Of a stretch of 64,000 nucleotides of DNA, positions 23,070 to 63,670 are shown in pieces (position 1 is the first letter of the stretch; every line of letters begins with the position of its first letter). The DNA comes from Nannocystis radixulma (GTDB taxonomy: Bacteria; Myxococcota_A; Polyangia; Nannocystales; Nannocystaceae). A model generated the notes under the pieces. The model saw nothing but the letters and a program-made list of their open reading frames with translations. It did not search any database and was not told the origin of the DNA. Position numbers and translations under genes: made by a program. The stretch lies in the NCBI RefSeq assembly GCF_028369095.1, contig NZ_JAQNDN010000024.1, positions 281,350 to 345,349 of the forward strand, written 5' to 3'.

Positions 23070-24082
23070 TGGATGGCGGCCGCGCAGGCGCCCGGGTCGC
23101 TCTCCCACACGTCGCAGTAGCGGTCGGCGAGGAGGGCGCCGCGGCTGCTGTCGAAGTCGCCGCAGCCGCTGATGTCGTCGAGGGCGTCGAAGCAGCCCGG
23201 GAATTCGTAGGGCACGCCGTTGTCGTCGTACATCTTGAGGCGCAGCTGGTCGCCGATGCACACGGCGCCGTTCGGGCCCCACTCGGCCTCGATGCCCCAG
23301 CTCTGCCGCTCGAGCGTGGCCGGGCTCTGGATCGCCGGGCTGAGCGCGTCGAACACGTCGATCGGCGTGCCGGTGAAGGTGTGCGGGGTGCCGTCGCCGC
23401 AGTAGTCGGCGCGGGCCAATCGCGTGCACGTCTGGTGGTGATCGGCGAGCCCGACGCCGCCGACGGTGGCCCACGGGCGGTAGCCCCACTCGACACACTT
23501 GGCCAGCACGGCGTCGCGGCAGGCGAACGTCACCGCCGTGGGATCGTCGACCCGCGCGCCGGTGGTGGGGTTCCACCAGTTGGCGATCGCTATGGCCTGG
23601 GTCGGCTGGCCGTTGTGGTCGTTGCAGAGGCTCGACCACTGGCTGGTCTCGTTGTCCTGGACGGCGATGTCATAGAACCACACGTCACCGTTCGGGTCGG
23701 CCGGGTCGAGATAGATGTCGTCGAAGCGCAGGACGAAGGTGGTGCCGCCGCCCTCGAGCGTGAGCACCGAACCGATCAGGTCGTCGCCGCTGACGGGCAC
23801 GGGCGTGCCGTCGACGTCATGCGTGGCGGAGAAGCTGCTGCCGACCAGGCTGATGCCGTTGAGGTTCCACCCGTTGAGGTTCCACCCGTTCATGCGCATG
23901 CCGTTGAGGGCGGTGCCGTTCATGCGCATACCGTTGAGGTTCCAGCCGTTGAGCCGCGCGGTATTCAACGCGATGCCGTTGTTTTCGTCGTTGCGTACCG
24001 TAATCGCTGTTCCGTCGTCGTTCCCGACGACATCACAGGCCACCACCGAACCGATGAGCAGAAGGCAGATCCCACGAGTCAT
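23066..24082 (-). CDS. Pentapeptide-repeat lipoprotein
   Basis: [16 protein letters not shown] lipobox and tandem [18 protein letters not shown] pentapeptide-like repeats. It converges on the chloroperoxidase gene with overlapping stop codons. Confidence 0.6.
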
Positions 24083-24398
24083 GAGCTCATCATCTCCTGA
24101 CCGAACTGCATGATCGAGGTCATTGTGGAGCGCAAGCGAGGAGGTTGCGATCCGGATGCAAGCGTCCGGCGTTACGATTGTCCGGTCACGTACGCGCTCG
24201 CATTCGTGCGTCCGTGACACACACCAGGACCGACGCGGCGTGCACCTGCAAAGAAGATCGCAACAATCCCGCTGCGGTCGCCGGCGAGTGATGGGCGCCG
24301 CGGCAGCGATGACACCCGGGCCCACATGCTCGCCGCCGCGAGATGCAGACGGAGGATCGACCGACCCCGATCGACGACCGGGGCCGGTCCGCTGACGA

Positions 24399-25193
24399 TC
24401 ACGCCCCGGAGGCGATCGGCGTCACGTCGGAGGGGATCGGGGCAGTGCGCCCGGGCACGATGCCGCGCTCGGCGAAGTCGGCGATGATCTTGTGGGCCCG
24501 CTCCATGACCTGCGCGAGCTCGGCGTCGGACAGGCCCTTGGTCTCGATCGGCGCGCCGACGTAGATCGTGATCCGGGACGGCGTCAGCAGGTACGAGCCC
24601 TTCTGCATCAGGTCGTACATGCCGTGCGTGGCCAGCGGGATGACCGGCAAGCCGGCGATCCGGGCCATCCAGAACACGCCGCGCTTGAACTCGGCGACCT
24701 TGCCGTCGAGCGTGCGGTGAGCCTCGGGGAAGGCGAGGATCGAGATGCCCTTCTTGGCCCGGTCGCGCGCGGCCTCGGCGATCGCACGGTAGCGGTTGGA
24801 GCCGCTCGGCACCGGGATGCCGTCGGCGAGCTTCATGATCCAGCCGTACATCGGGATCTTGAACTGCCAGGCGTTCATCAGCCCGCAGAAGGCGTGCGGG
24901 ATCGAGGCACAGGCGGCGTGCGCGTCGAGCAGGTTGACGTGATTCTGCATGAACACGCCGCGCCGCTCGGGGTCGAAATCGGGGTCGTAGATGATCTCGA
25001 CGCGGCTCAGCGTGATCTTGAGGACGGCGCCCATGCCGGGCCCGCCGATGTAGTTGTGGGTCTTGCGCGAGGGCACGACGGTGGACACGGCGGCCCACGT
25101 GACGGCGACGGCGCCCATCCACGTGAACGAGACCGTCCAGACGACGGCGGAGTAGACGACCTGAGCTGCCTTCTTGATGAACTTGAACACCAT
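24399..25193 (-). CDS. 1-acyl-sn-glycerol-3-phosphate acyltransferase (PlsC/LPLAT family)
   Basis: The N-terminal TM is followed by the NHVNLLDAH (HxxxxD) motif and the FPEAHRT and ATHGMYD blocks. Confidence 0.8.
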   Translation of the reverse strand: MVFKFIKKAAQVVYSAVVWTVSFTWMGAVAVTWAAVSTVVPSRKTHNYIGGPGMGAVLKITLSRVEIIYDPDFDPERRGVFMQNHVNLLDAHAACASIPHAFCGLMNAWQFKIPMYGWIMKLADGIPVPSGSNRYRAIAEAARDRAKKGISILAFPEAHRTLDGKVAEFKRGVFWMARIAGLPVIPLATHGMYDLMQKGSYLLTPSRITIYVGAPIETKGLSDAELAQVMERAHKIIADFAERGIVPGRTAPIPSDVTPIASGA

Positions 25194-25198
25194 GACGA

Positions 25199-26107
25199 TC
25201 ACGTCCGGACATCGAGCGCGGCCGGGACGACCTCCAGCCGCCGCGGGTTGATCTTGATCATCTCGCCGTCGACCATCACGTCGATGTCGTCGGCGAGGCG
25301 GAGGTCGAGGCCAGGGGCCTGATAGCAGCGCACGGCCGGGTGCTGCACGTGGGTGCCGCTGAAGATCTTGGGGAAGGTGCGCAGGAGCCCGACGCGGCCC
25401 AGGCGGCCGACGCGGATGATGTCGAGCAGGCCGTCGCGCGTGTTGGCGTCGGGCGCCATCATCATCTTGCCGCCGGTGAAGCGGCTGTTGTTGAACGAGA
25501 GGAAGGTCAGCGGCTCCCGATCCTCGGGCTGGCCGTCGATCTGCATCGGGAAGGTGTACGGCCGCAGCGCGGCGACCCGCAGCACGGTGCTCAGGGTGTA
25601 GCCGAACTCGCCCAGGCCGGAGAAGCTGCGGTTGCGGGTGGCGCCGACGTCGGCGACGAAGCCGATGCTGAAGATGTTGATGAAGTGCAGGGCGCCGCGC
25701 GTGTGGGTGCAGCGGATGAGGTCGCACGGGCGCGTCTTGCCGGCGATGATGGCCTCGATCGCGTACTCGGCGCCCTGGTCGGTGAAGTCGCGCAGGAAGG
25801 AGTTGCCTGTCCCGAGAGGCAGCATGCCGAGCGACGGCCGCTCACCCGCGGGCAAGGCGCCGGAGAAGATGCCGTTGATGAGCTCGTAGCTGGTGCCGTC
25901 GCCGCCGACGGCGATGAAGTGGCGCCGCCCGGCGGCGACCGCCTCGCGCGCGACGTCGGTGGCCTGACCGGGCGCCCTGGTCTCGACGACGTCGACCTTG
26001 ACGCCCGACTGCCGCAGCCGCTCGACGGCCGCGGGGGCCCGCTTGCCGCACACGCCGCCGCCGGCGGCTGGATTGACGACTGCGAGGAGTGCGGCCGGAT
26101 CGTGCAT
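25199..26107 (-). CDS. Diacylglycerol-kinase catalytic-domain lipid kinase (YegS/DAGK_cat family)
   Basis: FIAVGGDGTSYELINGI and GMLPLGTGNSF motifs. It ends 5 bp upstream of the plsC start. Confidence 0.8.
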   Translation of the reverse strand: MHDPAALLAVVNPAAGGGVCGKRAPAAVERLRQSGVKVDVVETRAPGQATDVAREAVAAGRRHFIAVGGDGTSYELINGIFSGALPAGERPSLGMLPLGTGNSFLRDFTDQGAEYAIEAIIAGKTRPCDLIRCTHTRGALHFINIFSIGFVADVGATRNRSFSGLGEFGYTLSTVLRVAALRPYTFPMQIDGQPEDREPLTFLSFNNSRFTGGKMMMAPDANTRDGLLDIIRVGRLGRVGLLRTFPKIFSGTHVQHPAVRCYQAPGLDLRLADDIDVMVDGEMIKINPRRLEVVPAALDVRT

Positions 26108-26137
26108 GGGTGCAGCCTATCAGGCCCCGGAGGACGA

Positions 26138-27853
26138 TTACAGCTCGCGCAAGGCGAGGGCGCGGCCGAGCGGCTTGAGCTCGCGGGCGAGAGGGTCGCG
26201 CTTGATCTTCTGCGAGGCGGTGCGCGGGAACTCGCGCTCCCACAGGACGTAGGCGGAGATCCGCTTGTAGTCGGCGAACTGGCGGTTGCGCTTGCGGAAG
26301 GCGTCGATGACGTCGGCCCGCGCGGCCTCGTCGAGGCCGGCCTTGGGCCGCACGACGACGATCAGCTGCTCGTCGGTCATCTTGCCGGTCGGCCAGATGA
26401 AGTTGGCCGCGAACACGCAGAACTCCTCGCAGTCGTCGATGTCGCCGAAGGCGGCCTCGATGTCCTCCGGATAGACGTTCTTGCCGCCCTCGGTGACGAT
26501 CATGTTCTTGGTGCGACCGAGCAGCTTGAGGTGCCCGGCGGCGTCCATGGTGCCGAGGTCGCCGGTCCGCAGCCAACCATCGACGATCGCCTCGCGCGTC
26601 AGCTCGGGCGCGTCGAGATAACCCAACATGACGGTGGGACCGCGCACCCACACCTCGCCGACGCCGCTCTCGTTGACGTCGCGCAGCTCGATCTCGGTGC
26701 CCTCGACCGCCTTGCCGACGCTGTCGCCGCGGAACGGCTTGAGGTCGTTGACGGTGAGGACGGTGCCGGCCTCGGTGAGGCCGTAGCCGATCACGACCGG
26801 CAGCCCGAGCCGGTTGAAGTACTCGGCGCTCTGCCGGTCGACGAAGGCGCCGCCGCAGAACATGAGCCGCAGCTTGCCGCCGAAGTACTCGTGGATCGGG
26901 GCCAGCAAGGTCTTGCTCAGCCCGTGGTTCGGCGCCTGCCGCGTGGCGTACTCGTTGATGTCCATGAGCCCGTCGAGCACGAGCCGCTGCCACTTCGGCA
27001 GCTCGGCGATCTTGTCCTTGATCTTCTTCTCGAGGGTCTTGAGGATCGTCGGCACCAGCGCCATGTGCGTGATGCCGTAACGCTTCATGGTGCTGGCCAG
27101 ATAGGCCGGCCTCAAGGTCCGCTGGTGGACGACGGCGCCGCCCATCATCAGCGCGAGCAGAAAGCCGCACATGAAGTCGATGGCGTGGTTGGTCGGGAGG
27201 ATCGAGAAGTATCGATCACCCTCGCTCAGCGGGTAGAGGTTGCCGAGCGTCTCGGCCTGCGCCATGTAGTTGGCGTGCGAGAGCTGGCAACCCTTGGCGG
27301 CTCCGCCGGTGCCCGAGGAGTAGACGATGCAGGCGACGTCCTCGCGCGCTCGCGCGTGGAAGGTGAAATCTGACCCCTGGGGCAGGTCCTCCCAGCGCAG
27401 CGCCCGGCCGATGTTGGCGCCCTCGGGCGCCTCGGTGACGATGACGAGGGTGCGCTCGAAGATCGAGGGATCCTCGCGCTGCAGCTTGTCCCACGCCGGC
27501 CACTCCGCGAGCACGACCCGCGGCCGACAGTGCGCGAGCAAGGCGTGCTGCTCGGGCGCGGTCAACTTGTAGTCGATGGGGACGAGGACGGCGCCGGCCC
27601 ACAAGGCCCCGGTGGCGCCGATGAGCCACTTCGACTGGTTCTGCATGACGATCGCACAGCGATCGCCAGGCCCGAACCCGTGAACCTGCAGGCCAGCCCC
27701 GAACCGCTCGGCCTGCGCTCGCAGCTCGGCGAAGGTGTGGCGCGAATTCTCGCGGTGCCGATCGGCCTCGATCAGCGCGACGCGGCTCTTGTACGTGATG
27801 GTGGCGTCACGCAGCGCCTCGCCCAGGCAGGACAGCTTTCCCAGGTCGAGCAT
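26138..27853 (-). CDS. Fatty-acyl-AMP ligase / AMP-dependent synthetase
   Basis: YSSGTGGAAKGCQLSHAN (AMP-binding motif), GYGLTEAG, TGDLGTMDAAGHLKLLGRTKNMI. Its start abuts the ACP stop. Confidence 0.85.
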   Translation of the reverse strand: MLDLGKLSCLGEALRDATITYKSRVALIEADRHRENSRHTFAELRAQAERFGAGLQVHGFGPGDRCAIVMQNQSKWLIGATGALWAGAVLVPIDYKLTAPEQHALLAHCRPRVVLAEWPAWDKLQREDPSIFERTLVIVTEAPEGANIGRALRWEDLPQGSDFTFHARAREDVACIVYSSGTGGAAKGCQLSHANYMAQAETLGNLYPLSEGDRYFSILPTNHAIDFMCGFLLALMMGGAVVHQRTLRPAYLASTMKRYGITHMALVPTILKTLEKKIKDKIAELPKWQRLVLDGLMDINEYATRQAPNHGLSKTLLAPIHEYFGGKLRLMFCGGAFVDRQSAEYFNRLGLPVVIGYGLTEAGTVLTVNDLKPFRGDSVGKAVEGTEIELRDVNESGVGEVWVRGPTVMLGYLDAPELTREAIVDGWLRTGDLGTMDAAGHLKLLGRTKNMIVTEGGKNVYPEDIEAAFGDIDDCEEFCVFAANFIWPTGKMTDEQLIVVVRPKAGLDEAARADVIDAFRKRNRQFADYKRISAYVLWEREFPRTASQKIKRDPLARELKPLGRALALREL

Positions 27854-28087
27854 CTAGCGCCTCGCGTCGATCTTCTGCGCCAGAGCAGCGAAGGTCTTGA
27901 TCCCCTGGAGCTCGTAGTCGGGCAGCTCGACGTCGAACTCGTCCTCGACGTCCGAGATGAGCTCGACGGCCTGAAAACTGTCGATGCCCAGGCGCTCGAA
28001 CAGGTCGTCCTCGGCGCGGAGCTTGGCCGGGTCGGCGCCGAAGCGCTTGGCGGCGAGACGGATGAGTGTGTCGAGAGTGTCGCTCAT
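27854..28087 (-). CDS. Acyl carrier protein
   Basis: 78 aa with LGIDSFQAVELI around the phosphopantetheine Ser, followed by an acidic helix. Its stop is adjacent to the ligase start. Confidence 0.7.
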   Translation of the reverse strand: MSDTLDTLIRLAAKRFGADPAKLRAEDDLFERLGIDSFQAVELISDVEDEFDVELPDYELQGIKTFAALAQKIDARR

Positions 28088-28129
28088 CGGATTTGCTCTC
28101 AATGTTCTGCTTCTGCTGTCGGGACGGGA

Positions 28130-29250
28130 ATCAGGCGTCGGGGTTCACGCGTGCTCGGACGCGGGGCGACTCGGGCGGCTCGGACGAGAGGCGTCGAGGC
28201 TCGCGTGTGCGGGGACGCGGGGCCGCGGGGAGCGGCTCAGGCGAGAGGCGTCGAGGCTCGCGTGTGCGGGAACGCGGGGCTGCGAGGAGCGGCTCAGGCG
28301 AGAGGCGTCGAAGATCGCGTGCGCGGGGACGCGGGGCCGTGGGGAGCGGGGAGGGGCGGCCCCGCGGCGGCGGAGCGGGTCCCTCGCGACGCGAGACCTG
28401 CCATGCCACATGCTCGACGCGGAAGGGCGATGGGGCATGTCCGAAGATTGATCCCGCGTCTGCGCGTGAGGCATGGGGCCCCTCGCTGCGTCCCACTCCG
28501 CCGCCGCGAGGCCGCCCCAGAAGATTGTGGTGGGCCCCGCTTGTCGTGAGGCGGAGAGGGTCGCTTCAAGCGCAAGAGAGGAGGCCGTGGCGGGCCCCGC
28601 TTGTCGTGAGACGGAGAGGATCGCTTCGAGCGAGAGAGCGGAGGTCGTGGCGGGCCCCGCTTGTCGTGAGACGGAGAGGATCGCTTCGAGCGAGAGAGCG
28701 GAGGTCGTGGCGGGCCCCGCTTGTCGTGAGACGGAGAGGATCGCTTCGAGCGAGAGAGCGGAGGTCGTGGCGGGCCCCGCTTGTCGAGAGGCGGAGGCGG
28801 TCGCTTCGGCGGCGGTGCCGGAGGCCGCGAAGGGCATCGTCGGTTCAAGCGGAGAAGCGGAGGCCGTGCCTGCTCGTTCAGACATGTTTCTCGAAGCAGG
28901 GCCGAAGGGACAGCCGAGCGGCGATGAGCGGGGCCGCTCGACGATCGTCTGGGTCGGCCCGGGCGCGGCGGAGTGGGACGCAGCGGGGGGCCCCATGCCT
29001 GGCGCGCAGACGGCGAGAGAACCTTCGGAAAGCGGAGAGCAAAACATCGCCGGCGAGCACCTGGCATGGCAGGTCTCGCGTAGCGAGGGACCCGCTCCGC
29101 CGCGCCCGGGCCGACCCACCCGGGTCTTCGTGGCCCCGCGCCCGCGCGGAACAAGAGACGAGCCGCAGTTCGAGACCTCGCGCCCACGCGGAACAAGAGA
29201 CGAGCCGCAACTCGTGAGCCTCTCATCGCCGCGCACAACCAATGCCACGC
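28130..29250. repeat. Composite repeat element: minisatellite A (about 57 bp x3, 28176-28346), core with CATGTCCGAAG motif, minisatellite B (60 bp x5, 28532-28830), partial inverted copy of the core (about 28890-29110), second short tandem (about 42 bp x2, 29120-29200)
   Basis: Direct reading shows near-identical tandem units (GGGCCCCGCTTGTCGTGAGACGGAGAGGATCGCTTCGAGCGAGAGAGCGGAGGTCGTGGC x5). Reverse-complement similarity links 28340-28500 to 28960-29100, and the ORF-track proteins here are repeat-driven. Confidence 0.75.
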
Positions 29251-29313
29251 CACCCGAATGTCTGCGGGTCCTGGTCCGTGGTTGGACGCGAGCAGGGCGG
29301 GCGCGAGCAGGGC

Positions 29314-30087
29314 TCATGGCAGGTAGGGCCGCAGGTCGGTGGATTCGACGAAGCGCTTGAGGGCGGCCAGCAGTGCGGGTCCCTGGGCCAGGCGGACGAA
29401 CAGCTCGCGCTCGGCGAGGAGCTCGTCGGTCGGGAGCTTCTTGATGAAGGCCTTGGCGGCCTTGCGCGCCGTCGGATCGAACTTGGCGGTCTGGGCCGCG
29501 AGGGCGCGCGCGGCGGTGATGCCCTCGCCGCCGGCGACGACCTGGCTGACGAGGCCGGCGGCCTGGGCCTTCTTGGCGTTGATGCTGCGGCCGCTGAGAA
29601 GGAGGTCGCGGATGAGGCCGTTGCCGACGTCGCGGCGCAGGCGCGGGATCCCGCCGAAGCCGGGGACGACACCGAGGCGCAGCTCGGGGAAGCAGAAGCG
29701 GGCCGACTTCTCGGCGATGAGGACGTCGCAGGTGAGCGCGAGCTCGAAGCCGCCGCCGAAGCAGACGCCGTGGACGACGCCGACGGTGGTGAGCGGCAGC
29801 ATGTCGAGGTCGTCCATGACGCCGTGGATCTCGTCGATGAACTTGCGGATCTGCGGGCCGTGCTGCTCGGCCGGGGCGTCGCACAGGCCGCGGTAGAGCT
29901 CGCGCAGGTCGGCGCCGGCGCAGAAGCCCTGGCGCAGGCCGCTGCGGAGGATGAGGGTGTGGGCGTCGCGATCGATCTGGTCGATAAAGCGGCGCAGATC
30001 GGCGAGCATCGCCGTGCCGATCTCGTTGCAGGGCGGCGTGGCGAGGGTGAGCTCGTAGACGCCGCTGTCGTAGGTCCAGTCGATCAT
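29314..30087 (-). CDS. Enoyl-CoA hydratase/isomerase (crotonase family)
   Basis: FCAGADL oxyanion motif and VHGVCFGGGFELALTCD. The ATG overlaps the upstream ligase stop (ATGA). Confidence 0.8.
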   Translation of the reverse strand: MIDWTYDSGVYELTLATPPCNEIGTAMLADLRRFIDQIDRDAHTLILRSGLRQGFCAGADLRELYRGLCDAPAEQHGPQIRKFIDEIHGVMDDLDMLPLTTVGVVHGVCFGGGFELALTCDVLIAEKSARFCFPELRLGVVPGFGGIPRLRRDVGNGLIRDLLLSGRSINAKKAQAAGLVSQVVAGGEGITAARALAAQTAKFDPTARKAAKAFIKKLPTDELLAERELFVRLAQGPALLAALKRFVESTDLRPYLP

Positions 30088-31718
30088 GACGCGTAGGCCC
30101 TGTCGATCTCGGCGCGGTAGCGCTGCTCGACGGCGCGGCGCCGCAGCTTCTGGTTGGCGGTGAGGAGGCCGTTCTCGATGGTGAACGGGTCGGCGACGCG
30201 GATGAAGGCGCGGATCTTCTTGTAGTGCGGGACGCTGGCGTTGACGACCTCGAGCGCGGCGTCGATGTCCTCCTTCGGGACGTCGCCAGGGACGATGATG
30301 CCGAGGAAGGGACGCGCGTGGCCGACGAGCATGCACTGCTCGGCGCGCGGACAGGCGGTCATGAACTTCTCCTCGATCGGCTCGGGGGCGATGTTGTGGC
30401 CCGACTCGGGGACGAGGATGTTCTTGACGCGACCGATGATCCGCAGGTTGCCGGTGTGGTCGAGCTCGCACTGGTCGCCGGTGTGGAACCAGCAGTCGCG
30501 GATGGCCTCGGCGGTGGCCTGCTCGCGCTTCCAGTAGCCGGCGAAGATGCCCGGGCCGCGCACCAGCAGCTCGCCCTCGTCGCTGAGCTTGAGCTCGCAG
30601 CCGCCGATGGCGTGGCCGACGTAGCCGGGGCGCACGCCGCCGGGGGTGTCCATGGTGACGATCGCGGTGGTCTCGGTCAGGCCGTAGACCTGGTAGACCT
30701 GCACGCCGATCAGCTCGAACCACCACTGGGTCTCTTCGGCGAGCGCGGCCGAGCCGCAGATCAAGAACTCGAGGCTGGGGCCGACCTGCTGCTTGATCTT
30801 GCTGAAGACGAGCTTCTTGGCGAGGGCGAGGGTGAGCCTGTCTGCAAGGCCAGCTTTGCCTTCGCGCTGGCGGCGGAAGGCGGCCTGGCCGCGCTGGTAG
30901 AGGGCGAGGGCGACGCCGCCGCGCTCCGCGATCTTCTTGCCGACGCCGTTCTTGATCCGCTCGAGCACGGCGGGGACGTTGAGGTAGTAGTGCGGATCGG
31001 CCGCGCCCATCTCGGCGACGAGGTTCTGCAGGTCGGTCGACAGCAGCAGCGGGTTGCCGCGGTACAGCTGCGTCCACAGCATGATGCGCGAGCCAGCGAA
31101 GCAGAACGGCAGAAAGTGGAACACCTTGTCGGCCCGCTGCCCGCCGGTGATCTTGTCGACGCTGCTGCGGGTCTGCGGCAGCATGTAGTCGACGTTGGCG
31201 CGGGTAAGGACGACGCCCTTGGGCTCGCCGCTGGTGCCGGAGGTGTAGATGATGGTGACCGGATCGGCGGGCGCGACCGGACGCGGCGGCTCGTGCACCG
31301 GGTCGCCGCGGAGGACGTCGCGCAGGTCCTCGATCGGGCAGTGCTCGGGCCAGGCGCCGCGCAGGCCGGCGGCGAGCTCGGGGCCGTCGGCGATGACGAG
31401 CACGGGGCTGCAGTCCTTGACCATGACGGCCAACTCGCGCGGGTCCTGGCGGCTGTAGAGCGGGACGACGATCGCACCTTCGAACAGGATCGAAAGGTCA
31501 GCCGCGACCCACCGCGCGGAGTTGGGGGCGAGCAGGGCGACGCGGTCGCCGGGCTTGACGCCGGCGCGGCGGAGGAAGCCGCGCGCGTGGGCGACGAGGT
31601 GCAGCAGCTGCGCGGCCGAGGTCGGGCGCCGCTCCTTGCCGTGGAGCTCGATGAGCAGGTGATCCTCGCGGGTCTTCTGGACCGCGGCGTGGATGACGTC
31701 GAGGAAGTTGTCGCTCAT
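30084..31718 (-). CDS. Long-chain-fatty-acid--CoA ligase (AMP-dependent synthetase)
   Basis: IIYTSGTSGEPKGVVLTRAN, YGLTETT, TGDQCELDHTGNLRIIGRVKNIL. The ATG overlaps the upstream stop. Confidence 0.85.
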   Translation of the reverse strand: MSDNFLDVIHAAVQKTREDHLLIELHGKERRPTSAAQLLHLVAHARGFLRRAGVKPGDRVALLAPNSARWVAADLSILFEGAIVVPLYSRQDPRELAVMVKDCSPVLVIADGPELAAGLRGAWPEHCPIEDLRDVLRGDPVHEPPRPVAPADPVTIIYTSGTSGEPKGVVLTRANVDYMLPQTRSSVDKITGGQRADKVFHFLPFCFAGSRIMLWTQLYRGNPLLLSTDLQNLVAEMGAADPHYYLNVPAVLERIKNGVGKKIAERGGVALALYQRGQAAFRRQREGKAGLADRLTLALAKKLVFSKIKQQVGPSLEFLICGSAALAEETQWWFELIGVQVYQVYGLTETTAIVTMDTPGGVRPGYVGHAIGGCELKLSDEGELLVRGPGIFAGYWKREQATAEAIRDCWFHTGDQCELDHTGNLRIIGRVKNILVPESGHNIAPEPIEEKFMTACPRAEQCMLVGHARPFLGIIVPGDVPKEDIDAALEVVNASVPHYKKIRAFIRVADPFTIENGLLTANQKLRRRAVEQRYRAEIDRAYAS

Positions 31719-33196
31719 GCGTGGCGCTCCAGCAGGCGCTGGACGTTGGGCGGCAGCGGCGGCAGGTGGGCGTCCCAGGTGCGCGGGAGGTCGCGCCGCG
31801 GGAACTGGGGATAGACGCGCACGACCTCGTCCATGAAGTCGATGCCCATCTGACCCATGAGCTTGAGCTGGGCCGGGACGGCGCGGGCGATGTCGGCGCT
31901 GATGGCGTCGGCGTCGCGCCACAGCCGGCGTAGGGTGTGCAGCAGCTTCTCGCCGAGGTCGTCCTCGTCGACCTCGAAGAACATGTCCGGGTGGCCGCGA
32001 TCGTTCATGAGGTTGCGGATCCGCTCGTCCATGGTGACGCCGGCCGAGGGCACGAGGCCCGGCATCGAGGTGACGATCGCGTGGAAGCGGGAGCTCACCA
32101 TCATGCTGCAATTGCGCAGCACGCTGACGAGGTCGAACATGTCGTGCTCGTCGCTGACGAACAGCGCGCCGCCGCGGTCGAGCCGCGGCTGCAGGTCCTC
32201 GCAGGCGTGGCGGTCGAGCTGCTCCATGCCGACGAGGATGGTGAAGAACTCGCGCTCCTGCGCGAAGGCGTTGACGCCGTCGGCCAGGGCCTGGATGTAG
32301 TTGTTGTACTTCTTCTCCGCCGCCTCGCTGTGGTGGTGGAAGTAGAAGGCGCTGTAGTGCTCGTGCTTGTACTGACCGCCGAGCTTGTAGGCGGCGTACT
32401 TGAGCAGGTCGGGCTTGACCGGCCACCAGAACGGGTTGATCGGGCAGACGACCAGGACCTTCTGGCGGCCGTCCCAGCCGGCGTCGCGCAGGAGCTGAGC
32501 GCCGCGCGACAGCGGCGCGGGGTCGAAGGTCCAGGCGGTGTCGGCCCCGGAGGTGGTGCGGATCCCGAGCTCGCCCAGGACCTGGCGCGAGGGCTCGTTG
32601 CGGCAGATGACCAGCGACTTCTTGCAGGCGTCGCGCACGAAGTCACGCAGCCCCGGGGTCATGTTGCCGGCCTCGGCGCCGTAGCCGACGCTGATCTTGT
32701 TCTCGGCGTTGGCGAGGCCGAGCGAGCCGGCCATGAAGCAGGTCAGCGCGCTCGAGAACTTCGACTTGAACATCGAGCCCTCGCACGCGATGACGCCGTG
32801 GTGCTTGGGGCACTCCTGGGCGATGAACTTGGGGAACACCGCCGGCAGCTCGATCTGGTGGACGGCGCGGAAGTAGCCGCGCGTCAGCTTGGGATCGACG
32901 GTCATGATCGTCAGCTCGAGGTCGTCGTCGCCGACGACGTGGCGCAGCTGGCGGATCATCTCCTCGACGCGGACGTCGGCGCCGGTGTTGCGCGTGCCGA
33001 CGTAGCCGGCCAGCAGCAGCTTGAGCGGCTTGCCCGGCTTCCACGTCTCCGGCGACATGCCGAGGACGTGGCGCACGGCGACGCCCTCGATCGCGGCGGC
33101 GACGGTGGCCTGGAGGGCGCGGTCGGGGTCGACGACCTCCTTGACCTTGTCCCAGATCTTGCTGGTGGTCTTCTTGACGGGTGCGCTCTTGGACAT
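31715..33196 (-). CDS. Polysaccharide pyruvyl transferase family protein (PF04230-like)
   Basis: 493 aa with balanced composition. The glycosyl/pyruvyl-transferase-like Rossmann halves match the family (LLAGYVGTRNTGADVRVEEMIRQL..., SSRFHAIVTSMPGLVPSAGVTMDERIRNLM). Confidence 0.6.
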   Translation of the reverse strand: MSKSAPVKKTTSKIWDKVKEVVDPDRALQATVAAAIEGVAVRHVLGMSPETWKPGKPLKLLLAGYVGTRNTGADVRVEEMIRQLRHVVGDDDLELTIMTVDPKLTRGYFRAVHQIELPAVFPKFIAQECPKHHGVIACEGSMFKSKFSSALTCFMAGSLGLANAENKISVGYGAEAGNMTPGLRDFVRDACKKSLVICRNEPSRQVLGELGIRTTSGADTAWTFDPAPLSRGAQLLRDAGWDGRQKVLVVCPINPFWWPVKPDLLKYAAYKLGGQYKHEHYSAFYFHHHSEAAEKKYNNYIQALADGVNAFAQEREFFTILVGMEQLDRHACEDLQPRLDRGGALFVSDEHDMFDLVSVLRNCSMMVSSRFHAIVTSMPGLVPSAGVTMDERIRNLMNDRGHPDMFFEVDEDDLGEKLLHTLRRLWRDADAISADIARAVPAQLKLMGQMGIDFMDEVVRVYPQFPRRDLPRTWDAHLPPLPPNVQRLLERHA

Positions 33197-33206
33197 GTTC
33201 GAAGGG

Positions 33207-34352
33207 CTAGGCCACCTGCCGCACCTGCGCGCCGCCGGGCCAGGGCTTGTACGGGTAGCTGAAGTTGTGGTCGACCGCGAAGCGGTAGAGCCCGTAGGCG
33301 TAGCGATCGAACGAGGCGGGCGCCTCGCCGAGGGCGTCGACGACCCGGCGGTTGTCGAACACGGTGTCGAAGGTGAGGTAGGGCAGGAACACCTTGAGCA
33401 GCGAGGCCGGGAGCGAGACGCCCCAGTTGCGCGGGGTGTTGGAGGCGGTCTCGACCACGCGGTTGAACGCGCCGTTGAGGCCGGGGACGAAGCGGTGCTT
33501 GACCGGGTGGCCGGCGCGCCGCATGGCGTCGACGACCTGGCGGTAGGTGAGCGAGGCGGTGCCGGAGCTGAGGCTGTAGGCGTCGTGCGGCAGCTTGTCG
33601 CGCTGGTGCAGGGTGACGATCGCCTTGGCGACGTAGTCGACCGGGACGATGTCGAGCCGCCAGTCGGGGTGGAACGGCAAGATCGGCAGCTTGGCGAGCA
33701 TGACGAACGCCCGCACCATGTCGAACTGGGTGGTCTCGGGGAAGCGGCTGTCGCCGAGGACGATCGAGGGCCGCAGCACGAGGCCCGGGACGTCGGGCAG
33801 GAGCTCGTGCAGCATGTGCTCGCAGAACTTCTTGGTCCGCGCGTACGGGTCGTAGTCGGATTTGTCCCAGTCGACGGTGTTGTCCTCGGTGACGACCTCG
33901 CTCTTGCGCTCGCCGGAAACTGCGACGGTGCTGATGTCGGTGAAGCGGCGCAGGCCGTGCTGGTCCTGGGCGTCGCGCGCGAGCTTGAGGACGCTCAGGG
34001 TGCCGCGCAGGTTGACGTTGAAGCAGGCCTTCGACGACTTGCGGTTGAGCGACGCGGCGCAGTGGATGACCGAGTCCATGGTGCGGACCAGCTTCTCGCG
34101 CGCGCCGGCCTCGAGGCCGAGGCCCGGGAAGGTCAGGTCGCCGAGGTAGAGGTCGCAGCGGGTGCGGACGAGGTCGAGGAAGCGCGGGAAGTCCATGTGC
34201 AGCTGCATGGACTTCCACAGCCGCTGCTCGGCCTCGGCGGGATCCTTGGCGCGCACGAGCAGGGCGAGGCGCTCGTTCGGGTGCTCGTCGAGCAGGCCCG
34301 CGGCGACGTACGAGCCGATGTATCCGGTGGCTCCGGTGAGGAAGATGGCCAT
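33207..34352 (-). CDS. NAD(P)-dependent thioester/fatty-acyl reductase-like SDR (extended, 3-beta-HSD/male-sterility type)
   Basis: N-terminal [16 protein letters not shown] Rossmann motif, and [10 protein letters not shown] fits the YxxxK catalytic dyad region. Confidence 0.7.
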
Positions 34353-34356
34353 GGTG

Positions 34357-36042
34357 TCAGACGACCTCGGCGTGGGGCGCGGGCGCGGCCTCGGGCGAGC
34401 GCAGGCGGAAGGGGTGGCGCGGGGAGTAGCTCTCGGGGGTCTTGTTCTCGAACAGCGGGAAGCACCACTTGCGCAGCCCGGGGATGTGCACGTCGATCCA
34501 GTAGTGGCGCCAGTCGATGCTGCGCGGGTCGCAGTCCCACTCGGGCTCGACCACCGGGTGGCGCAGCAGGTTGCGCGTGTAGAACGCGAAGTGGTTGTCG
34601 TGGATGAACGGCAGGTAGAGCTCGCACATGCGCTCGATCTTGTCGATCGCCTCGAGCGCGTCCTCGGTGTGCTCGGCGAAGTCGGTGAGCCGGCGGCGGA
34701 TGAACTCCGGCCACTCCTTCGGCGGGTCGCGCAGCCACTCGTCGACCGACTCGGTCATCTTGCGCACGTTCTCGATCCGCATCGGGTGGTCGGGCGTGAC
34801 GGCGATGGCGTCCCAGCGCGACTTGACGACGCGGTCGAGGGTGGTATCGCCGCGGGTGCGCAGGTGCTTGCGGTGGGCCAGCGCGACCAGCTCGACGGCG
34901 CGGTCGATGGTCAGCAGGTTGAGGTCGGAGCTGCCGCACTGGTAGACGGGCGCGTGCTCGCCCCGCATGAGCGCGGCGCCGGCGACGGTCATGCCGCGGC
35001 AGACGTAGTCGACCGGGATGATGTCGAAGGGGTTGCCCTTCTTGCACGGCAGGTGGCGGAACCAGCTGCCGAGCGCGTAGCTCAGCGGGCCGCAGGTGTT
35101 GAAGCCCTGGTTCCACCCGGGGAACGGGTAGCTCATCGAGCTCTCGACGATGGCCGGGCGGAACATGGCCCAGCGGCCCGGATCGAGGCGGCGGGCGATC
35201 CACGCCTCGGCCATGTTCTTGGTGAAGGTGTAGATGTTGGTGAAGCCCCAGCGGCCGGCGCGGCGCTGGCCCTCGGCCACCATCGCGTCCTTGAGCAGGT
35301 TGCGCTTGATCCGGCGGGCCGTGTTGCGCACCAGCATCGCGTTGTTCTCGTCGCCGCCCTTCTCGCGGATCTGCTTGATCGCGTCGTCCTGGGCGCGCCG
35401 ATCCATCTCGGCCGACTCGTGCTCGGCGAGGATGGCGTCGATGCTGGTCTGGATCTCGGCGTTCTCGGCCTCGACGTCGAAGGCGTCGCCGCTGGGCGCG
35501 AGGTCGGGGCGGATGTCCTCCCCGATCTTGCCGTTCTTCTTGCCGGTGACGTAGCAGGTCGAGATGTGGAGGAGGACGGCCTTGTCGCAGGCGGCGACGA
35601 AGTTGGCGGCGTTGCGGGCGCCCTCGACGTTGGTCGTCATGGCGTCGCGCAGGTCGGGGTCGAAGTCGACGAGGCCGGCGCAGTTGACCACGAGGTCGAT
35701 GTCGCGGCGCAGGCGGGCGAGCACCTCCGGGTCCTCGACGCCCATGTCGGGCAGCGAGACGTCGCCGGAGACGACCTCGACCCGCTCGCTGATGAAGCGG
35801 CTCATGTCGGCGCCGTACTTCTCGTGCAGCGGGCGGAAGCACGGCGAGGTCTGGACCTGGCGCTCGAACCGGTCGGCCGCCGGCCGCAGCGCCTTCTTGC
35901 GGGTGAGCACGTAGATCTTGCCGATCTCGGGCACGTGCTGCAGCACCATCGCCAGCCACACCTTGCCGAGAAAGCCGGTGACGCCGGTGAGCAGGACGTG
36001 GCGGCCGGCGTAGCAGTGCTTGATCGAGAGCGGCGTGTTCAC
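34357..36042 (-). CDS. Fatty acyl-CoA reductase (NAD_binding_4 / male-sterility domain plus C-terminal FAR domain)
   Basis: [18 protein letters not shown] Rossmann motif, YTFTKNMAE (YxxxK), and a roughly 200-aa C-terminal extension typical of FARs. Confidence 0.8.
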
Positions 36043-36070
36043 GGGTGTCCTCCGGTTCCTGTCCGTAAGG

Positions 36071-36748
36071 TCAGTCGCGATAGTCGATGATCGGCCAGTC
36101 GGCGTCCTTGGCGCTGCGGCGCAGGACGAAGTCGGGGTTGACGGCGCACGGCTTGCCGACGCGCGAGAGCAGCAGCATGTCGGGGCCGTGGGCGCCGTAG
36201 GCGGAGCAGCGGGCGAGCTCGAGCTTGTGCACGGCCGCGTAGTCGTCGAGCCAGCGGCCGCCGACGTTGGAGCCGATGACCGGATCGAGCAGCCTGCCGG
36301 TGGCCTCGTCGTCCTCGAACTCGATGTGGTTGAAGACGAGCTCGTCGTAGTGCTTGAGGTGACGCGCGAGCGGCTTCATGATCGGCTCGATGCTGTCGGA
36401 CAGCAGCACGACCCGCCGCCCCTCCGCCTGCAGCCGCTTGAGCAGCTCGAGGCCCTGATCGAGGATGGTGTCCTTCAGGACATCCTCGGCGTACTCCTCG
36501 CACAGGACCTCGACGCGGTCGCGGCTCATGCCACGGATGGCGAGGTGGGCCAGACGGTGGGCCAGCGCGCGGTCGGTCTGGCCGAGCAGGCGGTGGACCG
36601 GGGCGGCGAGACCGACGAGGCCGAGGCGCAGCGCCCGCTCGCCGAACTTCTTGGCGTTGGCGGCCAGGTAGGCCGCCGCGCTGAGCACGCCGCGGGCGAG
36701 CAGGATGCCTTCGACGCGGACGAATGCTGCCGTGTTGGTTTGTGTCAT
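36071..36748 (-). CDS. HAD-IB family hydrolase (phosphoserine-phosphatase-like)
   Basis: The N-terminus is AAFVRVEGILLARGVLSAAAYLAA rather than a canonical DxD motif, but the HAD-IB cap/core pattern is present (LLSDSIEPIMKPLARHL...GKPCAV). It lies 28 bp upstream of the FAR gene. Confidence 0.55.
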   Translation of the reverse strand: MTQTNTAAFVRVEGILLARGVLSAAAYLAANAKKFGERALRLGLVGLAAPVHRLLGQTDRALAHRLAHLAIRGMSRDRVEVLCEEYAEDVLKDTILDQGLELLKRLQAEGRRVVLLSDSIEPIMKPLARHLKHYDELVFNHIEFEDDEATGRLLDPVIGSNVGGRWLDDYAAVHKLELARCSAYGAHGPDMLLLSRVGKPCAVNPDFVLRRSAKDADWPIIDYRD

Positions 36749-37046
36749 CGACCAGACTCGCGGCCTAGTTAGCGCACCCGAGGCCAGCGTTACAAGCATT
36801 CCCAAGCTGACGGAGATGCCTGCGAAGGCCGCTGCGCACGCCGTTTTACGCGTGCACCGGGGTGCGCAGGATCGGCGGCGACGAGGCCTCGGTGGCCGTT
36901 CGGCGGGCTTTGGCGGCGAGGCTCGCGAAGGCCCGAGATGTTTACTCGCACGAGTAAGTAGTTGCCGCGGACGTTTGACCGTGCGTTTAAGAAATTGCTC
37001 CCCGAATCGCGGTGGTCGGGGCGTCACCGGTGGGTCGCGCGTCGAG

Positions 37047-37694
37047 GTGCGCTATCGTGTGGTCGTGACCCCGCCGCTGCTCGTCTGCGCCGCCGAGGTC
37101 GAGGGCCGCGGGCTGCCCTCGGCGCTGCGCCTCGGCGTCGGCAAGGTGGCCGCGGCGGTGGCCATGACCGCGGCGCTGCACGAGCGCCGGCCGGCGTGGG
37201 TGCTGCTGTTCGGGGTCTGCGGCGCCTATCCCGAGGGACATGGCCCGGGGGGCAGGCTGGACGTCGGCGACGTGTGCCTGGTCGGCGACGAGTGGCTCGC
37301 CGACGAGGGGGTGGCGACCGACGACGGGTTCCTGCCGCTGTCGCAGCTGGGGCTGGGGTCGAACGGGCCGTTTCACGCCGACGCGGAGCGTTCGGCGGCG
37401 GCGGCCCGGGTGCTCGGGGCGCCGATCGTGCGCGGGGCGACGGTCAGCGCGTGCAGCGGGACCGACCCGCGCTCGCGCGAGCTGGCGACCCTGACGGGGG
37501 CGACGGTCGAGACGATGGAGGGCGCGGCGGTGGCGTGGGCGTGCGGGCGCGCGGGCGTGCCGTGGGTCCAGCTGCGCTGCGTCAGCAACCGGACCGGACG
37601 ACGGGCCGCGGGCGGCTGGGATCTGCCGCGCGCGGTGACCGGGGTGCAAGAGGCGTTGCGGCGGCTGGAGGCCGCGAACTGGGGGATGGCTTGA
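37047..37694 (+). CDS. mqnB: Futalosine hydrolase (MqnB), MTA/SAH-nucleosidase fold; GTG start tentative
   Basis: VVVTPPLLVCAAEVEGRGL..., ATVETMEGAAVAWACGRAGVPWVQLRCVSNRTG. It is immediately followed by mqnD. Confidence 0.6.
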   Translation: MRYRVVVTPPLLVCAAEVEGRGLPSALRLGVGKVAAAVAMTAALHERRPAWVLLFGVCGAYPEGHGPGGRLDVGDVCLVGDEWLADEGVATDDGFLPLSQLGLGSNGPFHADAERSAAAARVLGAPIVRGATVSACSGTDPRSRELATLTGATVETMEGAAVAWACGRAGVPWVQLRCVSNRTGRRAAGGWDLPRAVTGVQEALRRLEAANWGMA

Positions 37695-37695
37695 G

Positions 37696-42369: not shown

Positions 42370-42646
42370 CGGCGGCTCCTTGAGGGCGACAGGAGAAAGT
42401 GACAGCTGTACGAAGAACAATTGCTTGGTTGACTTCGTTCACGCGACTGTCGCCGCGCGAGCCCAGGAGCGGGTCGCGAGGCCTCGTGTGTCGCGGCGAA
42501 CGATGTTGGACGGCGCCGCTTCTTCGCGGCTCGCCGGCCTGTCAGCGCGTGCGAATGGATCGACGTTCGACGCTGTCAGTGTCGCGAACCATGTTCGGCG
42601 CGCGCGGCTTCGTCTTCGCGGCTCGCCGGCGATCGATCGACGTTCG

Positions 42647-63379: not shown

Positions 63380-63670
63380 ACCCCGGCAGGTACGGCGAGA
63401 GGCGTCGAGGATCGCGTGCGCGAGGACGCGGGGCCGTGGGGAGCGGGGAGGGGCGGCCTCGCGGCGGCGGCGCGGGTCCCTCGCGACGCGAGACCTGCCA
63501 TGCCACATGCTCGACGCGGATGAGCGATGGGGCATGTCCGAGGATTGATCCCGCGTCTGCGCGTGAGGCATGGGGCCCCTCGCTGCGTCCCACTCCGCCG
63601 CCGCGAGGCCGCCCCAGAAGAGTGTGGCGGGCCCCGCTTGTCGTGAGGCGGAGGTGGTCGCTTCGAACGA
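63380..63670. repeat. Second copy (about 290 bp, single-unit version) of the composite repeat found at 28.3-28.6 kb
   Basis: About 95% identical by eye to 28290-28590 and includes the GGGGCATGTCCGAGGATTGATCCCGCGTCTGCGCGTGAGGCATGGGGCCCCTCGCTGCGTCCCACTCCGCCGCCGCGAGGCCGCCCCAGAAG core. Confidence 0.7.

Follow-up and report, generated by a model that had tools for sequence, protein, structure and literature searches.

A ten-gene operon of Nannocystis radixulma as a candidate sibling of Elb, the ether-lipid system of myxobacteria

Introduction

Which lipid would be made by a group of genes that looks like a multifunctional ether-lipid enzyme taken apart, but which includes further enzymes that the known pathway does not use? 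This question is raised by positions 24399-36748 of the window, i.e. the whole stretch of 64,000 nucleotides of Nannocystis radixulma DNA analysed here. The ten co-oriented minus-strand genes originally predicted in this region (g1-g10; table 1) are borne out by a third-codon-position GC frame plot and by ORF tables. In Myxococcus, a core of FAR, ACS, ACP and AT makes 1-O-alkyl lipids without a pyruvyl transferase. As a reference we used the elbA-E genes of M. stipitatus (locus L085; MIBiG BGC0000871), in which ElbD has the architecture FAR-ACS-ACP-AGPAT. Our literature search found no paper describing the operon or its lipid product, none on Nannocystis ether lipids and, in line with the original view of an undescribed system, none in which ether-lipid or fatty-alcohol genes are connected with a pyruvyl transferase.

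Results

The domains of all ten genes exceed their Pfam gathering scores in a Pfam profile search, which upholds the FAR, ACP and AGPAT assignments of the original prediction together with the rest, with the exception of the fatty-acyl-AMP ligase (FAAL) that g8 had been taken for. Start/stop overlaps, claimed for the upstream six genes as a group, occur only at g4/g5 and g5/g6 (4 nt each); g7 and g8 abut without a gap, and the remaining junctions, g6/g7 apart, have gaps of 4-30 nt. Neither an acyl-CoA dehydrogenase nor a thiolase gene was found in the ten-gene operon.

Table 1. Features of the operon and of the insertion dividing it, with predicted products and Pfam scores.
Feature	Position	Strand	Description
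g1	36071..36748	-	225 aa; ElbB-like HAD-fold protein; Pfam HAD 66 bits
g2	34357..36042	-	561 aa; fatty acyl reductase, ElbD/FARAT N-terminal type; NAD_binding_4 168 bits
g3	33207..34352	-	381 aa; thioester-reductase-type SDR; NAD_binding_4 153 bits
g4	31715..33196	-	493 aa; pyruvyl-transferase-family GT-B enzyme; PS_pyruv_trans 44 bits
g5	30084..31718	-	544 aa; acyl-CoA ligase, FadD11/CAR-A-domain-like; AMP-binding 205 bits and AMP-binding_C_3
g6	29314..30087	-	257 aa; enoyl-CoA hydratase; ECH_1 126 bits
non-coding repeat insertion	28088..29313	.	no GC3 phase signal; between g6 and g7
g7	27854..28087	-	77 aa; acyl carrier protein; PP-binding 51 bits
g8	26138..27853	-	571 aa; ElbD-ACS-like adenylating ligase; AMP-binding 239 bits
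g9	25199..26107	-	302 aa; soluble lipid kinase, YegS/Rv2252/BmrU family; DAGK_cat and YegS_C
g10	24399..25193	-	264 aa; PlsC-type acyltransferase, hydrophobic N-terminus; Acyltransferase 54 bits

The order g1-g10 is kept in Myxococcota, Acidobacteriota, Bdellovibrionota and one Planctomycetes MAG, and at least eight genes are colinear in 34 of 48 adequately flanked loci; because this order recurs so often and in several phyla, the grouping of the genes is not due to chance. At least 598 GTDB species have g4, and a gene for a CDP-alcohol phosphatidyltransferase adjoins the operon in 7 Terriglobia loci. The operon is carried by species from soil and sediment that number in the hundreds.

A repeat element of 1226 nt, overlooked in the original prediction, separates g6 from g7; it has no coding signal and is built of tandem arrays (a 57-nt unit in 3.8 copies at 28133-28349 and a 60-nt unit in 4.7 copies at 28527-28808) and of inverted arms of about 220 nt each (28322-28538 and 28931-29148). 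A 271-nt unit of it is found again at 63394-63664 with 96% identity, and ATGAGC is present twice, once at each end. The element is not present in N. exedens, N. pusilla and RBIL2, the three other Nannocystis genomes compared, in which the g6 stop and the g7 start overlap as ATGA. It is a strain-specific insertion that splits the operon by parting the hydratase gene from that of the ACP; in the other genomes these two genes are translationally coupled.

The idea of a disaggregated ElbD domain set is confirmed by homology. M. stipitatus ElbD aligns with g2 over its residues 7-560 (33% identity, E 4e-81) and with g8 over residues 569-1106 (30% identity, E 5e-74); the full length of g8 is 30-34% identical to the A domains of ElbD and ElbD-like proteins (285 bits), g7 matches the ACP domain of other ElbD-like proteins with 37% identity, and g10 shares 25-31% identity with the AT domain of ElbD and ElbD-like proteins (25% with that of M. 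stipitatus ElbD). These alignments show that the modules united in ElbD, namely FAR, ACS, ACP and AT, have free-standing homologs here in g2, g8, g7 and g10, respectively; the homolog of ElbB is g1 (32% identity to the M. stipitatus protein, E 1e-39). Synteny with the Myxococcus elb genes holds in part. In both cases lipid genes of Myxococcota form a co-directional operon, and components are homologous, including g1 and ElbB, but the present operon has a gene of its own for each of the four ElbD modules and another order of these, ElbC (LarA-like, Lar_N) and ElbA, both features of elb, are absent, and g3 is of the thioester-reductase type and no ortholog of ElbE, to which it has weak similarity (24%, E 7e-6). 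Conversely, g4, g5, g6 and g9 have no elb counterpart: the three canonical elbD neighbourhoods examined contain no pyruvyl-transferase-like gene, ECH, second ligase or lipid kinase, and near fused ElbD an ElbE-like partner is found alone, without a pyruvyl transferase.

A further difference concerns g1, which has the HAD fold of the phosphatase it was originally assigned as, but not the catalytic aspartates; the catalytic residues are lost in all its orthologs. Its motif I reads F-R-V-E-G as against F-D-V-D-G in ElbB, which keeps DVDGT; the Lys of motif III is changed to Gly and the first Asp of motif IV to Ala, and the altered residues R11 and E13 are themselves kept in 35 and 34, respectively, of 36 aligned orthologs. 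We predict that g1 is a pseudo-phosphatase, so that the presumed lipid kinase/phosphatase pair does not hold up. A natural HAD-FAR fusion with the g1-type motif ties g1 to g2. The kinase g9 scores 151.5 against TIGR00147 (curated cut-off 118.65). Whereas in canonical elb the phosphatase is intact and a kinase is absent, the present operon combines a kinase with a dead phosphatase.

Catalytic motifs of g2, g3, g6, g7, g9 and g10 proved to be conserved in alignments of 31-69 orthologs. The reductase g2, in which the Sterile domain is weak (20.5 versus a cut-off of 35.4), keeps GxxGxxG and YxxxK in 63 orthologs; Y170 and K174 of g3 are invariant in 69, E115 and E135, the two catalytic glutamates that mark g6 as a true hydratase, in 61, Ser37 in the D-S motif of g7 in 57 and GGDGT of g9 in 50, and the HX4D and FPExxR motifs of g10 are kept in its orthologs. 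The best NCBIfam match of g3 is the thioester-reductase domain TIGR01746 (140 bits, under the cut-off of 213). Proteins of at least 1300 aa account for 34 of the 150 best 50%-identity representatives of g2; six long g2 relatives were scanned, and the five full-length ones all have the architecture FAR-ACS-ACP-AT.

Among the ligases, g5 is related in the PDB to CoA ligases and to the A domain of CAR, to which it aligns over residues 134-542; it is missing from the orthologous operons L012, L017, L018, L024, L026, L028 and L043. For g8, the closest solved structures are CoA ligases, with no FAAL structure among the 46 chains listed, and its assignment as a FAAL is not supported.

The pyruvyl-transferase-like g4 resembles the PF04230 enzymes WcaK, CsaB and Pvg1 in its Pfam score, its GT-B fold and the motifs R(D/E/N)xxS, DTAW and RxH common to g4 and E. 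coli WcaK, of which R, D-T-A-W and R-x-H are invariant across 84 sequences; it differs from them in sitting among lipid rather than polysaccharide genes. It is far under the equivalog cut-offs for CsaB (72 bits versus 213) and WcaK (20 bits versus 399), and has a C-terminal helical extension as well as an invariant aromatic insert, PINPFWWPVKPD, that is peculiar to it. Judged by median identity across orthologous operons (53% versus 36-43% for g10, g2 and g1), g4 ranks with the best-conserved operon genes.

Discussion

With a probability that we put at roughly 0.45, the operon may use fatty acids to make a lipid of the phosphatidic-acid type that comes from a fatty alcohol, most likely has an ether link and owes its three-carbon backbone to phosphoenolpyruvate (PEP), a source which we only infer. 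Acyl-CoA from g5, or from a housekeeping FadD where g5 is missing, would be reduced to a fatty alcohol by the FAR g2, with g1 as its non-catalytic partner. The enolpyruvyl group of PEP would be moved onto this alcohol by g4, which would form the ether bond and yield a 2-alkoxyacrylate; g8 would load the latter onto the ACP g7, g6 would hydrate its terminal methylene to give a 2-O-alkyl-glyceroyl thioester, and g3 would reduce this to 2-O-alkylglycerol. Since such a backbone would arise without phosphate, it would have to be phosphorylated by g9, before g10 would acylate the free hydroxyl and the product would enter head-group synthesis. We know of no 2-O-alkyl-1-acyl glycerolipids from Nannocystis. 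For g4 and g6, the mechanistic analogy we have in mind is with MurA and MurB, where an enolpyruvyl group from PEP is likewise transferred to a hydroxyl to form an ether and the vinyl group is processed afterwards, although MurA is from an unrelated fold family and uses UDP-GlcNAc as acceptor.

The PEP scheme is supported by the WcaK-shared motifs kept in g4, the natural HAD-FAR fusion, the g6/g7 coupling in other genomes and the adjoining CDP-alcohol phosphatidyltransferase, and it assigns a function to the two ligases and the two reductases as well as to the carrier, hydratase, kinase and acyltransferase. That g5 is dispensable in some operons would be expected if it only makes ordinary acyl-CoA, and a backbone that starts out unphosphorylated agrees with the presence of a kinase and an inactive phosphatase in place of an intact one. 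Against the scheme stands that the pyruvyl transferases characterised to date, to our knowledge, act on sugars and form ketals, not fatty-alcohol enol ethers. Moreover, since the Elb core makes 1-O-alkyl lipids without such an enzyme, the ether bond may come from the shared core, with g4 playing another role. The splitting of g8/g7/g3 and g5/g2 between two branches of the scheme is arbitrary.

Other known systems share parts of this logic. The aerobic FAR/GNPAT/AGPS plasmalogen route (MXAN_1676-1674; eukaryotic FARAT) has the same FAR subfamily and also a PlsC-type acyltransferase, and FAR-acyltransferase fusions of 700-790 aa are among the best g2 relatives; because neither the operon nor the ORFs scanned in the window include an AGPS (FAD-linked alkylglycerone-phosphate synthase), the ether-forming enzyme cannot be the same. 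With carboxylic acid reductases and NRPS-like A-T-R proteins the operon shares a three-step logic of ligase (g8 or g5), g7 and g3, here distributed over three separate proteins and with g3 under the TIGR01746 cut-off.

A possible, if rather unlikely, alternative to the PEP scheme is Elb-like chemistry on a glycerol-phosphate/DHAP backbone, leading to a 1-O-alkyl-2-acyl glycerophospholipid. Here g8 and g7 would load a fatty acid, g2 and g3 would reduce it to the aldehyde or alcohol, and the ether bond would be made as in the ElbD/ElbE route; g4 would pyruvylate or otherwise modify the lipid or its head group, g5 and g6 would supply or trim acyl chains, and g9 would recycle a dephosphorylated intermediate. 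The homology of the FAR, ACS, ACP, AT and HAD components to ElbD and ElbB, the strongest signal in our data, argues for this, as does the fact that fused ElbD works without a pyruvyl transferase and with only an ElbE-like partner in its vicinity; and as Nannocystis is reported to be without a canonical elb cluster (PMC12224551), the operon could replace elb. The conservation of g4 is, however, unusual for a decorating enzyme, an ElbE ortholog is lacking, g6 is left without an enoyl substrate because there is no acyl-CoA dehydrogenase in the operon, and this reading does not account for a g1 stripped of its phosphatase residues in an operon that has gained a kinase.

We consider it quite improbable that the product is no ether lipid but a glycerol-free or unusual anionic lipid, for instance a long-chain 1,3-diol made via g5, g6 and g2 with its hydroxyls bridged by a pyruvate ketal from g4, or a fatty-alcohol phosphate or diol phosphate ester from g9/g10. 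CsaB, WcaK and Pvg1 do bridge the 4,6-hydroxyls of a sugar, i.e. a 1,3-diol arrangement, and the smallest enzyme set that can make a 1,3-diol out of an enoyl or 3-hydroxyacyl thioester consists of ligase, hydratase and FAR. Yet enoyl-CoA would again have to be supplied without an acyl-CoA dehydrogenase in the operon, the ACP, second ligase, thioester reductase, kinase and PlsC-type transferase would be largely unexplained, and both the Elb homology and the neighbouring CDP-alcohol phosphatidyltransferase point to glycerophospholipid-type products. A chance neighbourhood of housekeeping genes for fatty-acid activation, beta-oxidation and phospholipids without a common product is close to refuted and carries almost no weight: an acyl-CoA ligase and an enoyl-CoA hydratase do represent typical beta-oxidation families, and the 1.2-kb insertion does part the operon halves in this strain, but neither dehydrogenase nor thiolase is present, three other Nannocystis genomes are free of the insertion, start/stop overlaps exist, HAD-FAR and FAR-ACS-ACP-AT fusions are known among homologs, and gene order is conserved across phyla.

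Overall, the view that an Elb-related operon would make a reduced-acyl glycerolipid stands on much firmer ground than the PEP scheme, and in our best reading, based on sequence comparison, this operon is probably an undescribed system and the evolutionary sibling of Elb, the ether-lipid system of myxobacteria.

Gene organization and genomic setting

At a G+C content of about 70%, the raw ORF lists of the window are full of spurious frames. Genes were called from a GC frame plot of third codon positions together with ORF translations, which resolved ten minus-strand genes (g1–g10; see table), all of which carry the domains named for them in the original prediction, above the Pfam gathering score, when searched with HMMs. 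Start/stop overlaps had been proposed for the upstream six genes; they are found at g4/g5 and g5/g6 only (4 nt each), the other upstream junctions being gapped. The g7 and g8 genes abut, and the remaining gaps measure 4–30 nt, apart from a repeat stretch between g6 and g7. The flanks of the operon, i.e. divergent futalosine-pathway genes upstream and a gene for an ADYC-domain protein downstream, bear no relation to lipid metabolism, and no other lipid-related gene was found among the window ORFs scanned. A promoter and terminator scan gave sites no more numerous than in shuffled sequence, and searches of the complete window for Rfam families and tRNAs returned zero matches. As listed, the first ORF of the futalosine pair extends about 40 nt into g1, and its actual start therefore probably lies further downstream. 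The window also encodes a protein with a lysyl-oxidase domain, which is uncommon among bacteria.

The stretch between g6 and g7, which had been overlooked in the first account of this locus, shows no coding phase signal in the GC frame plot. It contains two tandem arrays (a 57-nt unit repeated 3.8 times and a 60-nt unit repeated 4.7 times) as well as inverted arms of about 220 nt, and a 271-nt unit of it is found a second time in the window, i.e. the element is dispersed and intergenic; neither copy matches an Rfam family. In N. exedens, N. pusilla and Nannocystis sp. RBIL2 the insertion is absent and the g6 stop and g7 start overlap as ATGA, which is exactly the insertion point in the window, where ATGAGC is present at both ends. 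The stretch looks like a strain-specific insertion of a dispersed MITE- or REP-like mobile repeat, which we read as having broken the translational coupling of g6 and g7 while leaving both ORFs intact.

Features of the lipid operon, its surroundings and comparison loci; positions refer to the window unless a locus is named. The last column gives matches to Elb proteins of Myxococcus stipitatus (amino-acid identity, E value).
Feature	Position	Strand	Domains and remarks	Match
Operon g1–g10	24399-36748	-	ten genes	
g1, HAD-fold/ElbB-like		-	HAD	ElbB (32%, 2e-38)
g2, FAR		-	NAD_binding_4; Sterile domain sub-threshold	ElbD FAR (33%, 4e-81)
g3, thioester-reductase type		-	NAD_binding_4; top NCBIfam match thioester-reductase domain	ElbE (24%, 7e-6)
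g4, pyruvyl-transferase family		-	PS_pyruv_trans	
g5, acyl-CoA ligase		-	AMP-binding + AMP-binding_C_3	ElbD ACS (28%, 7e-46)
g6, enoyl-CoA hydratase (ECH)		-	ECH_1 (126 bits)	
g7, ACP		-	PP-binding	
g8, adenylating ligase		-	AMP-binding	ElbD ACS (30%, 5e-74)
g9, lipid kinase		-	DAGK_cat + YegS_C; above curated TIGR00147 lipid-kinase cut-off	
g10, PlsC-type acyltransferase		-	Acyltransferase	ElbD AT (25%, 7e-13)
Repeat stretch between g6 and g7	28088-29313		1226 nt	
Second copy of 271-nt repeat unit	63394-63664		96% identity	
Futalosine menaquinone pathway genes	36705-38520	+	MqnB-like nucleosidase (PNP_UDP_1); MqnD-type VitK2_biosynth	
Lysyl-oxidase-domain protein	40504-42420	-	638 aa	
ADYC-domain protein	23066-24325	-	repeat run close to N-terminus	
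ElbC, M. stipitatus elb operon (L085)	L085 6382-7992		Lar_N (lactate racemase/nickel-pincer enzyme family), precomputed Pfam annotation	
'23S rRNA intervening sequence protein', Planctomycetes MAG	L001 10636-11106		PF05635; small gene, between g4 and g5 of a split operon	
'23S rRNA intervening sequence protein', Planctomycetes MAG	L087 8011-8337		PF05635; small gene, upstream of a fused elbD	

Catalytic motifs of the encoded enzymes

The label of a HAD phosphatase, originally given to g1, does not survive a look at its catalytic residues. In the alignment with ElbB, motif I of g1 reads FVRVEGIL opposite FFDVDGTL, i.e. F-R-V-E-G stands where HAD phosphatases carry F-D-x-D-G and an arginine and a glutamate replace both motif I aspartates, which Myxococcus ElbB retains; moreover, the motif III lysine of ElbB is a glycine in g1 and the first motif IV aspartate an alanine. 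R11 is kept in 35 and E13 in 34 of the 36 aligned g1 orthologs, the motif is visible in about 60 loci, and g1 scores under the cut-offs of both TIGR01490 and TIGR01488. Because of these losses in motifs I, III and IV the g1 family is, judged by its residues, a HAD-fold pseudo-phosphatase throughout. At least one acidobacterial protein (P0261) is a natural HAD-FAR fusion bearing the g1-type motif, which suggests that g1 works together with g2.

Motif conservation was assessed over 31–84 orthologs per gene. GxxGxxG and YxxxK are retained in g2 and g3 orthologs, as are the phosphopantetheine serine in those of g7 and the HX4D motif in those of g10; the catalytic glutamates GGGFE115 and FPE135 do not vary among 61 g6 orthologs, and GGDGT is invariant in 50 orthologs of g9, which scores 151.5 bits against TIGR00147 (cut-off 118.65). 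Judged by its relatives, g8 is not the FAAL it was initially taken for: the 46 solved structures listed as its relatives comprise CoA ligases, luciferases and aryl-acid AMP ligases (e.g. salicylate-AMP ligase) but no FAAL, the best being feruloyl-CoA, malonyl-CoA and oxalyl-CoA ligases and FadD13, and its top NCBIfam matches are long-chain fatty-acid-CoA ligases. From its context, g8 likely loads the adjacent ACP g7. The second ligase, g5, is in addition similar to carboxylic acid reductase A domains.

By sequence, g4 belongs with the pyruvyl transferases. It scores 44.2 bits against PF04230 (cut-off 25.3), and a g4 profile reaches E. coli WcaK with an E value of 5e-4, pairing CRNEPS with LRESVS, DTAW with DTAW and SSRFHA with GTRLHS; four residues aligned to WcaK (R199, D219, R370 and H372) are invariant across 84 sequences, and g4 proteins share a specific, invariant aromatic insert, PINPFWWPVKPD. 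The protein falls below the equivalog cut-offs of both CsaB and WcaK, and sequence and profile searches of the PDB gave chance matches only. To our knowledge, the pyruvyl transferases known so far use sugars as acceptors; neither the operon nor the other window ORFs scanned include a polysaccharide gene in the vicinity of g4. Stand-alone g4 loci (L016, L023, L025, L040 and L063) have unrelated neighbours, e.g. genes for FG-GAP proteins, SecDF, RecJ and PFK.

Relation to the Elb system

The idea that this locus represents a disaggregated ElbD is borne out by sequence comparison, with g2, g8, g7 and g10 being homologous to ElbD-type modules and g1 to ElbB. In an exhaustive search with g2, 34 of the 150 best representatives considered are proteins of at least 1300 aa, in each of which the aligned part is the N-terminal ~550 residues. 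Six of these long matches were scanned, and all five full-length ones show the order NAD_binding_4/Sterile - AMP-binding - PP-binding - Acyltransferase, i.e. the architecture of ElbD, with g8, g7 and g10 aligning to the matching modules. One fused protein used as a query retrieved named ElbD orthologs in Myxococcus, Archangium, Corallococcus and others; fused ElbD-type proteins elsewhere have 1440–1700 aa. The carrier g7 and the ACP of other ElbD-like proteins share 37% identity. The g3 protein fits the ElbD FAR domain better than it does ElbE, the NAD-dependent epimerase/dehydratase partner in Elb, and its best family is thioester reductase. We firmly regard g1–g10 as partly homologous to the Elb ether-lipid system.

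The differences are just as clear. The canonical M. stipitatus operon consists of genes for the epimerase ElbA, the HAD protein ElbB, the 536-aa LarA-like ElbC (Lar_N), ElbD and ElbE, with which the published description agrees (PMC9131029). Whereas a single ElbD polypeptide comprises FAR-ACS-ACP-AGPAT, these modules are here distributed over the separate g2, g8, g7 and g10, in the order FAR ... ACP, ACS, kinase, AT. ElbC, situated between ElbB and ElbD in Elb, is missing from the g1–g10 operon; no window protein matches ElbC or ElbA, and the Pfam scan gave no Lar_N hit. Finally, the phosphatase of canonical Elb is intact and a kinase is lacking there, whereas the g1–g10 operon combines a kinase with a putatively dead phosphatase. 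The accessory enzyme set and the phosphorylation logic both differ. AGPS-dependent ether-lipid synthesis relies on a FAD-linked alkylglycerone-phosphate synthase along with FAR and acyltransferase; the operon contains no gene for such an enzyme, with no FAD_binding_4 or AGPS match in its genes or in 28 other window ORFs scanned.

Two further connections were considered and rejected. ElbC is LarA-like and not a homolog of g4, and in three loci examined the neighbourhood of fused elbD is free of genes for a pyruvyl transferase, an ECH or a DAGK-type kinase. Reviews call ElbC a protein of unknown function; its Lar_N domain may be a clue to Elb chemistry. Published elb-like clusters are all centred on an ElbD, either fused or split in two. 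According to a pan-genome study, conservation of the elb (VEPE/AEPE) cluster does not extend to Nannocystis, Polyangium or Sorangium (PMC12224551), and it would fit that the g1–g10 operon fills the elb niche in these genera.

Conservation and distribution

Homologs of g4 form more than 7000 clusters at 90% identity and are encoded in at least 598 species among GTDB species genomes, the best matches (95–96% amino-acid identity) being those of N. exedens DSM 71, N. pusilla Na p29 and Nannocystis sp. RBIL2. A synteny map, generated by tblastn with all ten proteins over 83 fetched loci, shows the g1–g10 order to be kept in Nannocystaceae, Paraliomyxa, Polyangiales, Sandaracinaceae, Bradymonadia, Bdellovibrionota, many Terriglobia and Blastocatellia and one 'Xenobia' MAG, with a Planctomycetes MAG keeping it for g4–g10 only. 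At least eight genes are colinear in 34 of the 48 loci with enough flank, and all ten in 17 of these 48; g5 is absent from seven otherwise complete operons. Recurrent accessory genes encode a CDP-alcohol phosphatidyltransferase (7 Terriglobia loci), FabH between g6 and g7 (Blastocatellia) and a TetR regulator (~10 Myxococcota loci). With an acidobacterial g4 ortholog as a query for cultured hosts, matches came from uncultured Terriglobales only. In L049, L055, L061, L062, L066 and related Acidobacteriaceae loci, where g10 went undetected, g9 is followed by a thioredoxin-like ORF, a VKOR-family ORF and an esterase gene, a set that lies on the same strand as the kinase gene in 8–11 loci.

We are confident that g1–g10 is one conserved unit. 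It is spread over hundreds of species, most of them from uncultured lineages of soil and sediment, a much broader range than one would expect from the elb literature. An assembly of housekeeping genes is essentially excluded, with a role in beta-oxidation in particular being rejected because the synteny is conserved and gene fusions exist.

A possible route to an ether lipid

The predicted activities are firm: two ligases for activating carboxylic acids, one of them adjoining a carrier, two reductases for thioesters, an enoyl-thioester hydratase, a PEP-type transferase, a lipid-alcohol kinase and an acyltransferase for a glycerolipid-type acceptor. An eight-step scheme drawing on PEP would find a use for every gene. 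Either g5 or a housekeeping FadD would turn a fatty acid into acyl-CoA, which g2 would reduce to a fatty alcohol; g4 would place the enolpyruvyl group of PEP onto this alcohol, yielding an enolpyruvyl ether, and the resulting acid would become an ACP thioester through g8 and g7. Hydration by g6 would give 2-O-alkylglyceroyl-ACP, from which g3 would generate 2-O-alkylglycerol, to be phosphorylated by g9 and acylated at the free hydroxyl by g10. The dispensability of g5, the g6/g7 translational coupling in other genomes, the kinase plus putatively dead phosphatase (the reverse of canonical Elb) and the CDP-alcohol transferase adjoining the operon in some genomes all fit this scheme.

In the most far-reaching reading, the operon would encode an unrecognised, oxygen-tolerant ether-lipid route: g4 would form the ether bond by moving enolpyruvyl from PEP to a fatty alcohol, and the lipid itself would then be the site where hydration, thioester reduction, phosphorylation and acylation produce a glycerol-like backbone, rather than this being taken from glycerol phosphate or DHAP. 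We consider this reading doubtful, with a probability of roughly one in six. The Elb core that the operon shares yields 1-O-alkyl lipids without any pyruvyl transferase, and this core may form the ether bond here too, with g4 serving another purpose. It is less likely that the product is a non-ether diol or ketal lipid. Uncultured Terriglobales and Blastocatellia from soil very commonly carry the operon. For this reason the enolpyruvyl route, should it exist, would also be a candidate source of ether bonds in the membrane lipids of Acidobacteriota; we know of no established aerobic ether-forming enzymes for these lipids.

Significance

In the literature we found no description of the g1–g10 operon, no link between a pyruvyl transferase and ether-lipid, fatty acyl-CoA reductase or fatty-alcohol genes, and no lipid data concerning ether lipids or alkylglycerols of Nannocystis. 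The operon is clearly Elb-related, yet differs in accessory enzymes and phosphorylation logic. It represents a second, much more widespread configuration, in which a PEP-type transferase, a hydratase and a kinase take the place of the LarA-like ElbC; the phosphatase, for its part, has apparently become a pseudoenzyme.

The ether-bond step of the Elb route in aerobic bacteria is still unresolved (PMC9131029; bioRxiv 10.64898/2026.06.23.733905). The operon presents ElbD in a naturally dissected form, with one function per gene, and each step is therefore separately testable; since culturable Nannocystis and Paraliomyxa carry it, genetics and lipidomics are feasible. It is also abundant in uncultured soil Acidobacteriota, a group discussed as a source of ether lipids with environmental importance. 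If the PEP idea is true, lipid biochemistry would gain a novel type of ether-bond chemistry; even if it is not, the operon points to a putative lipid of hundreds of species.
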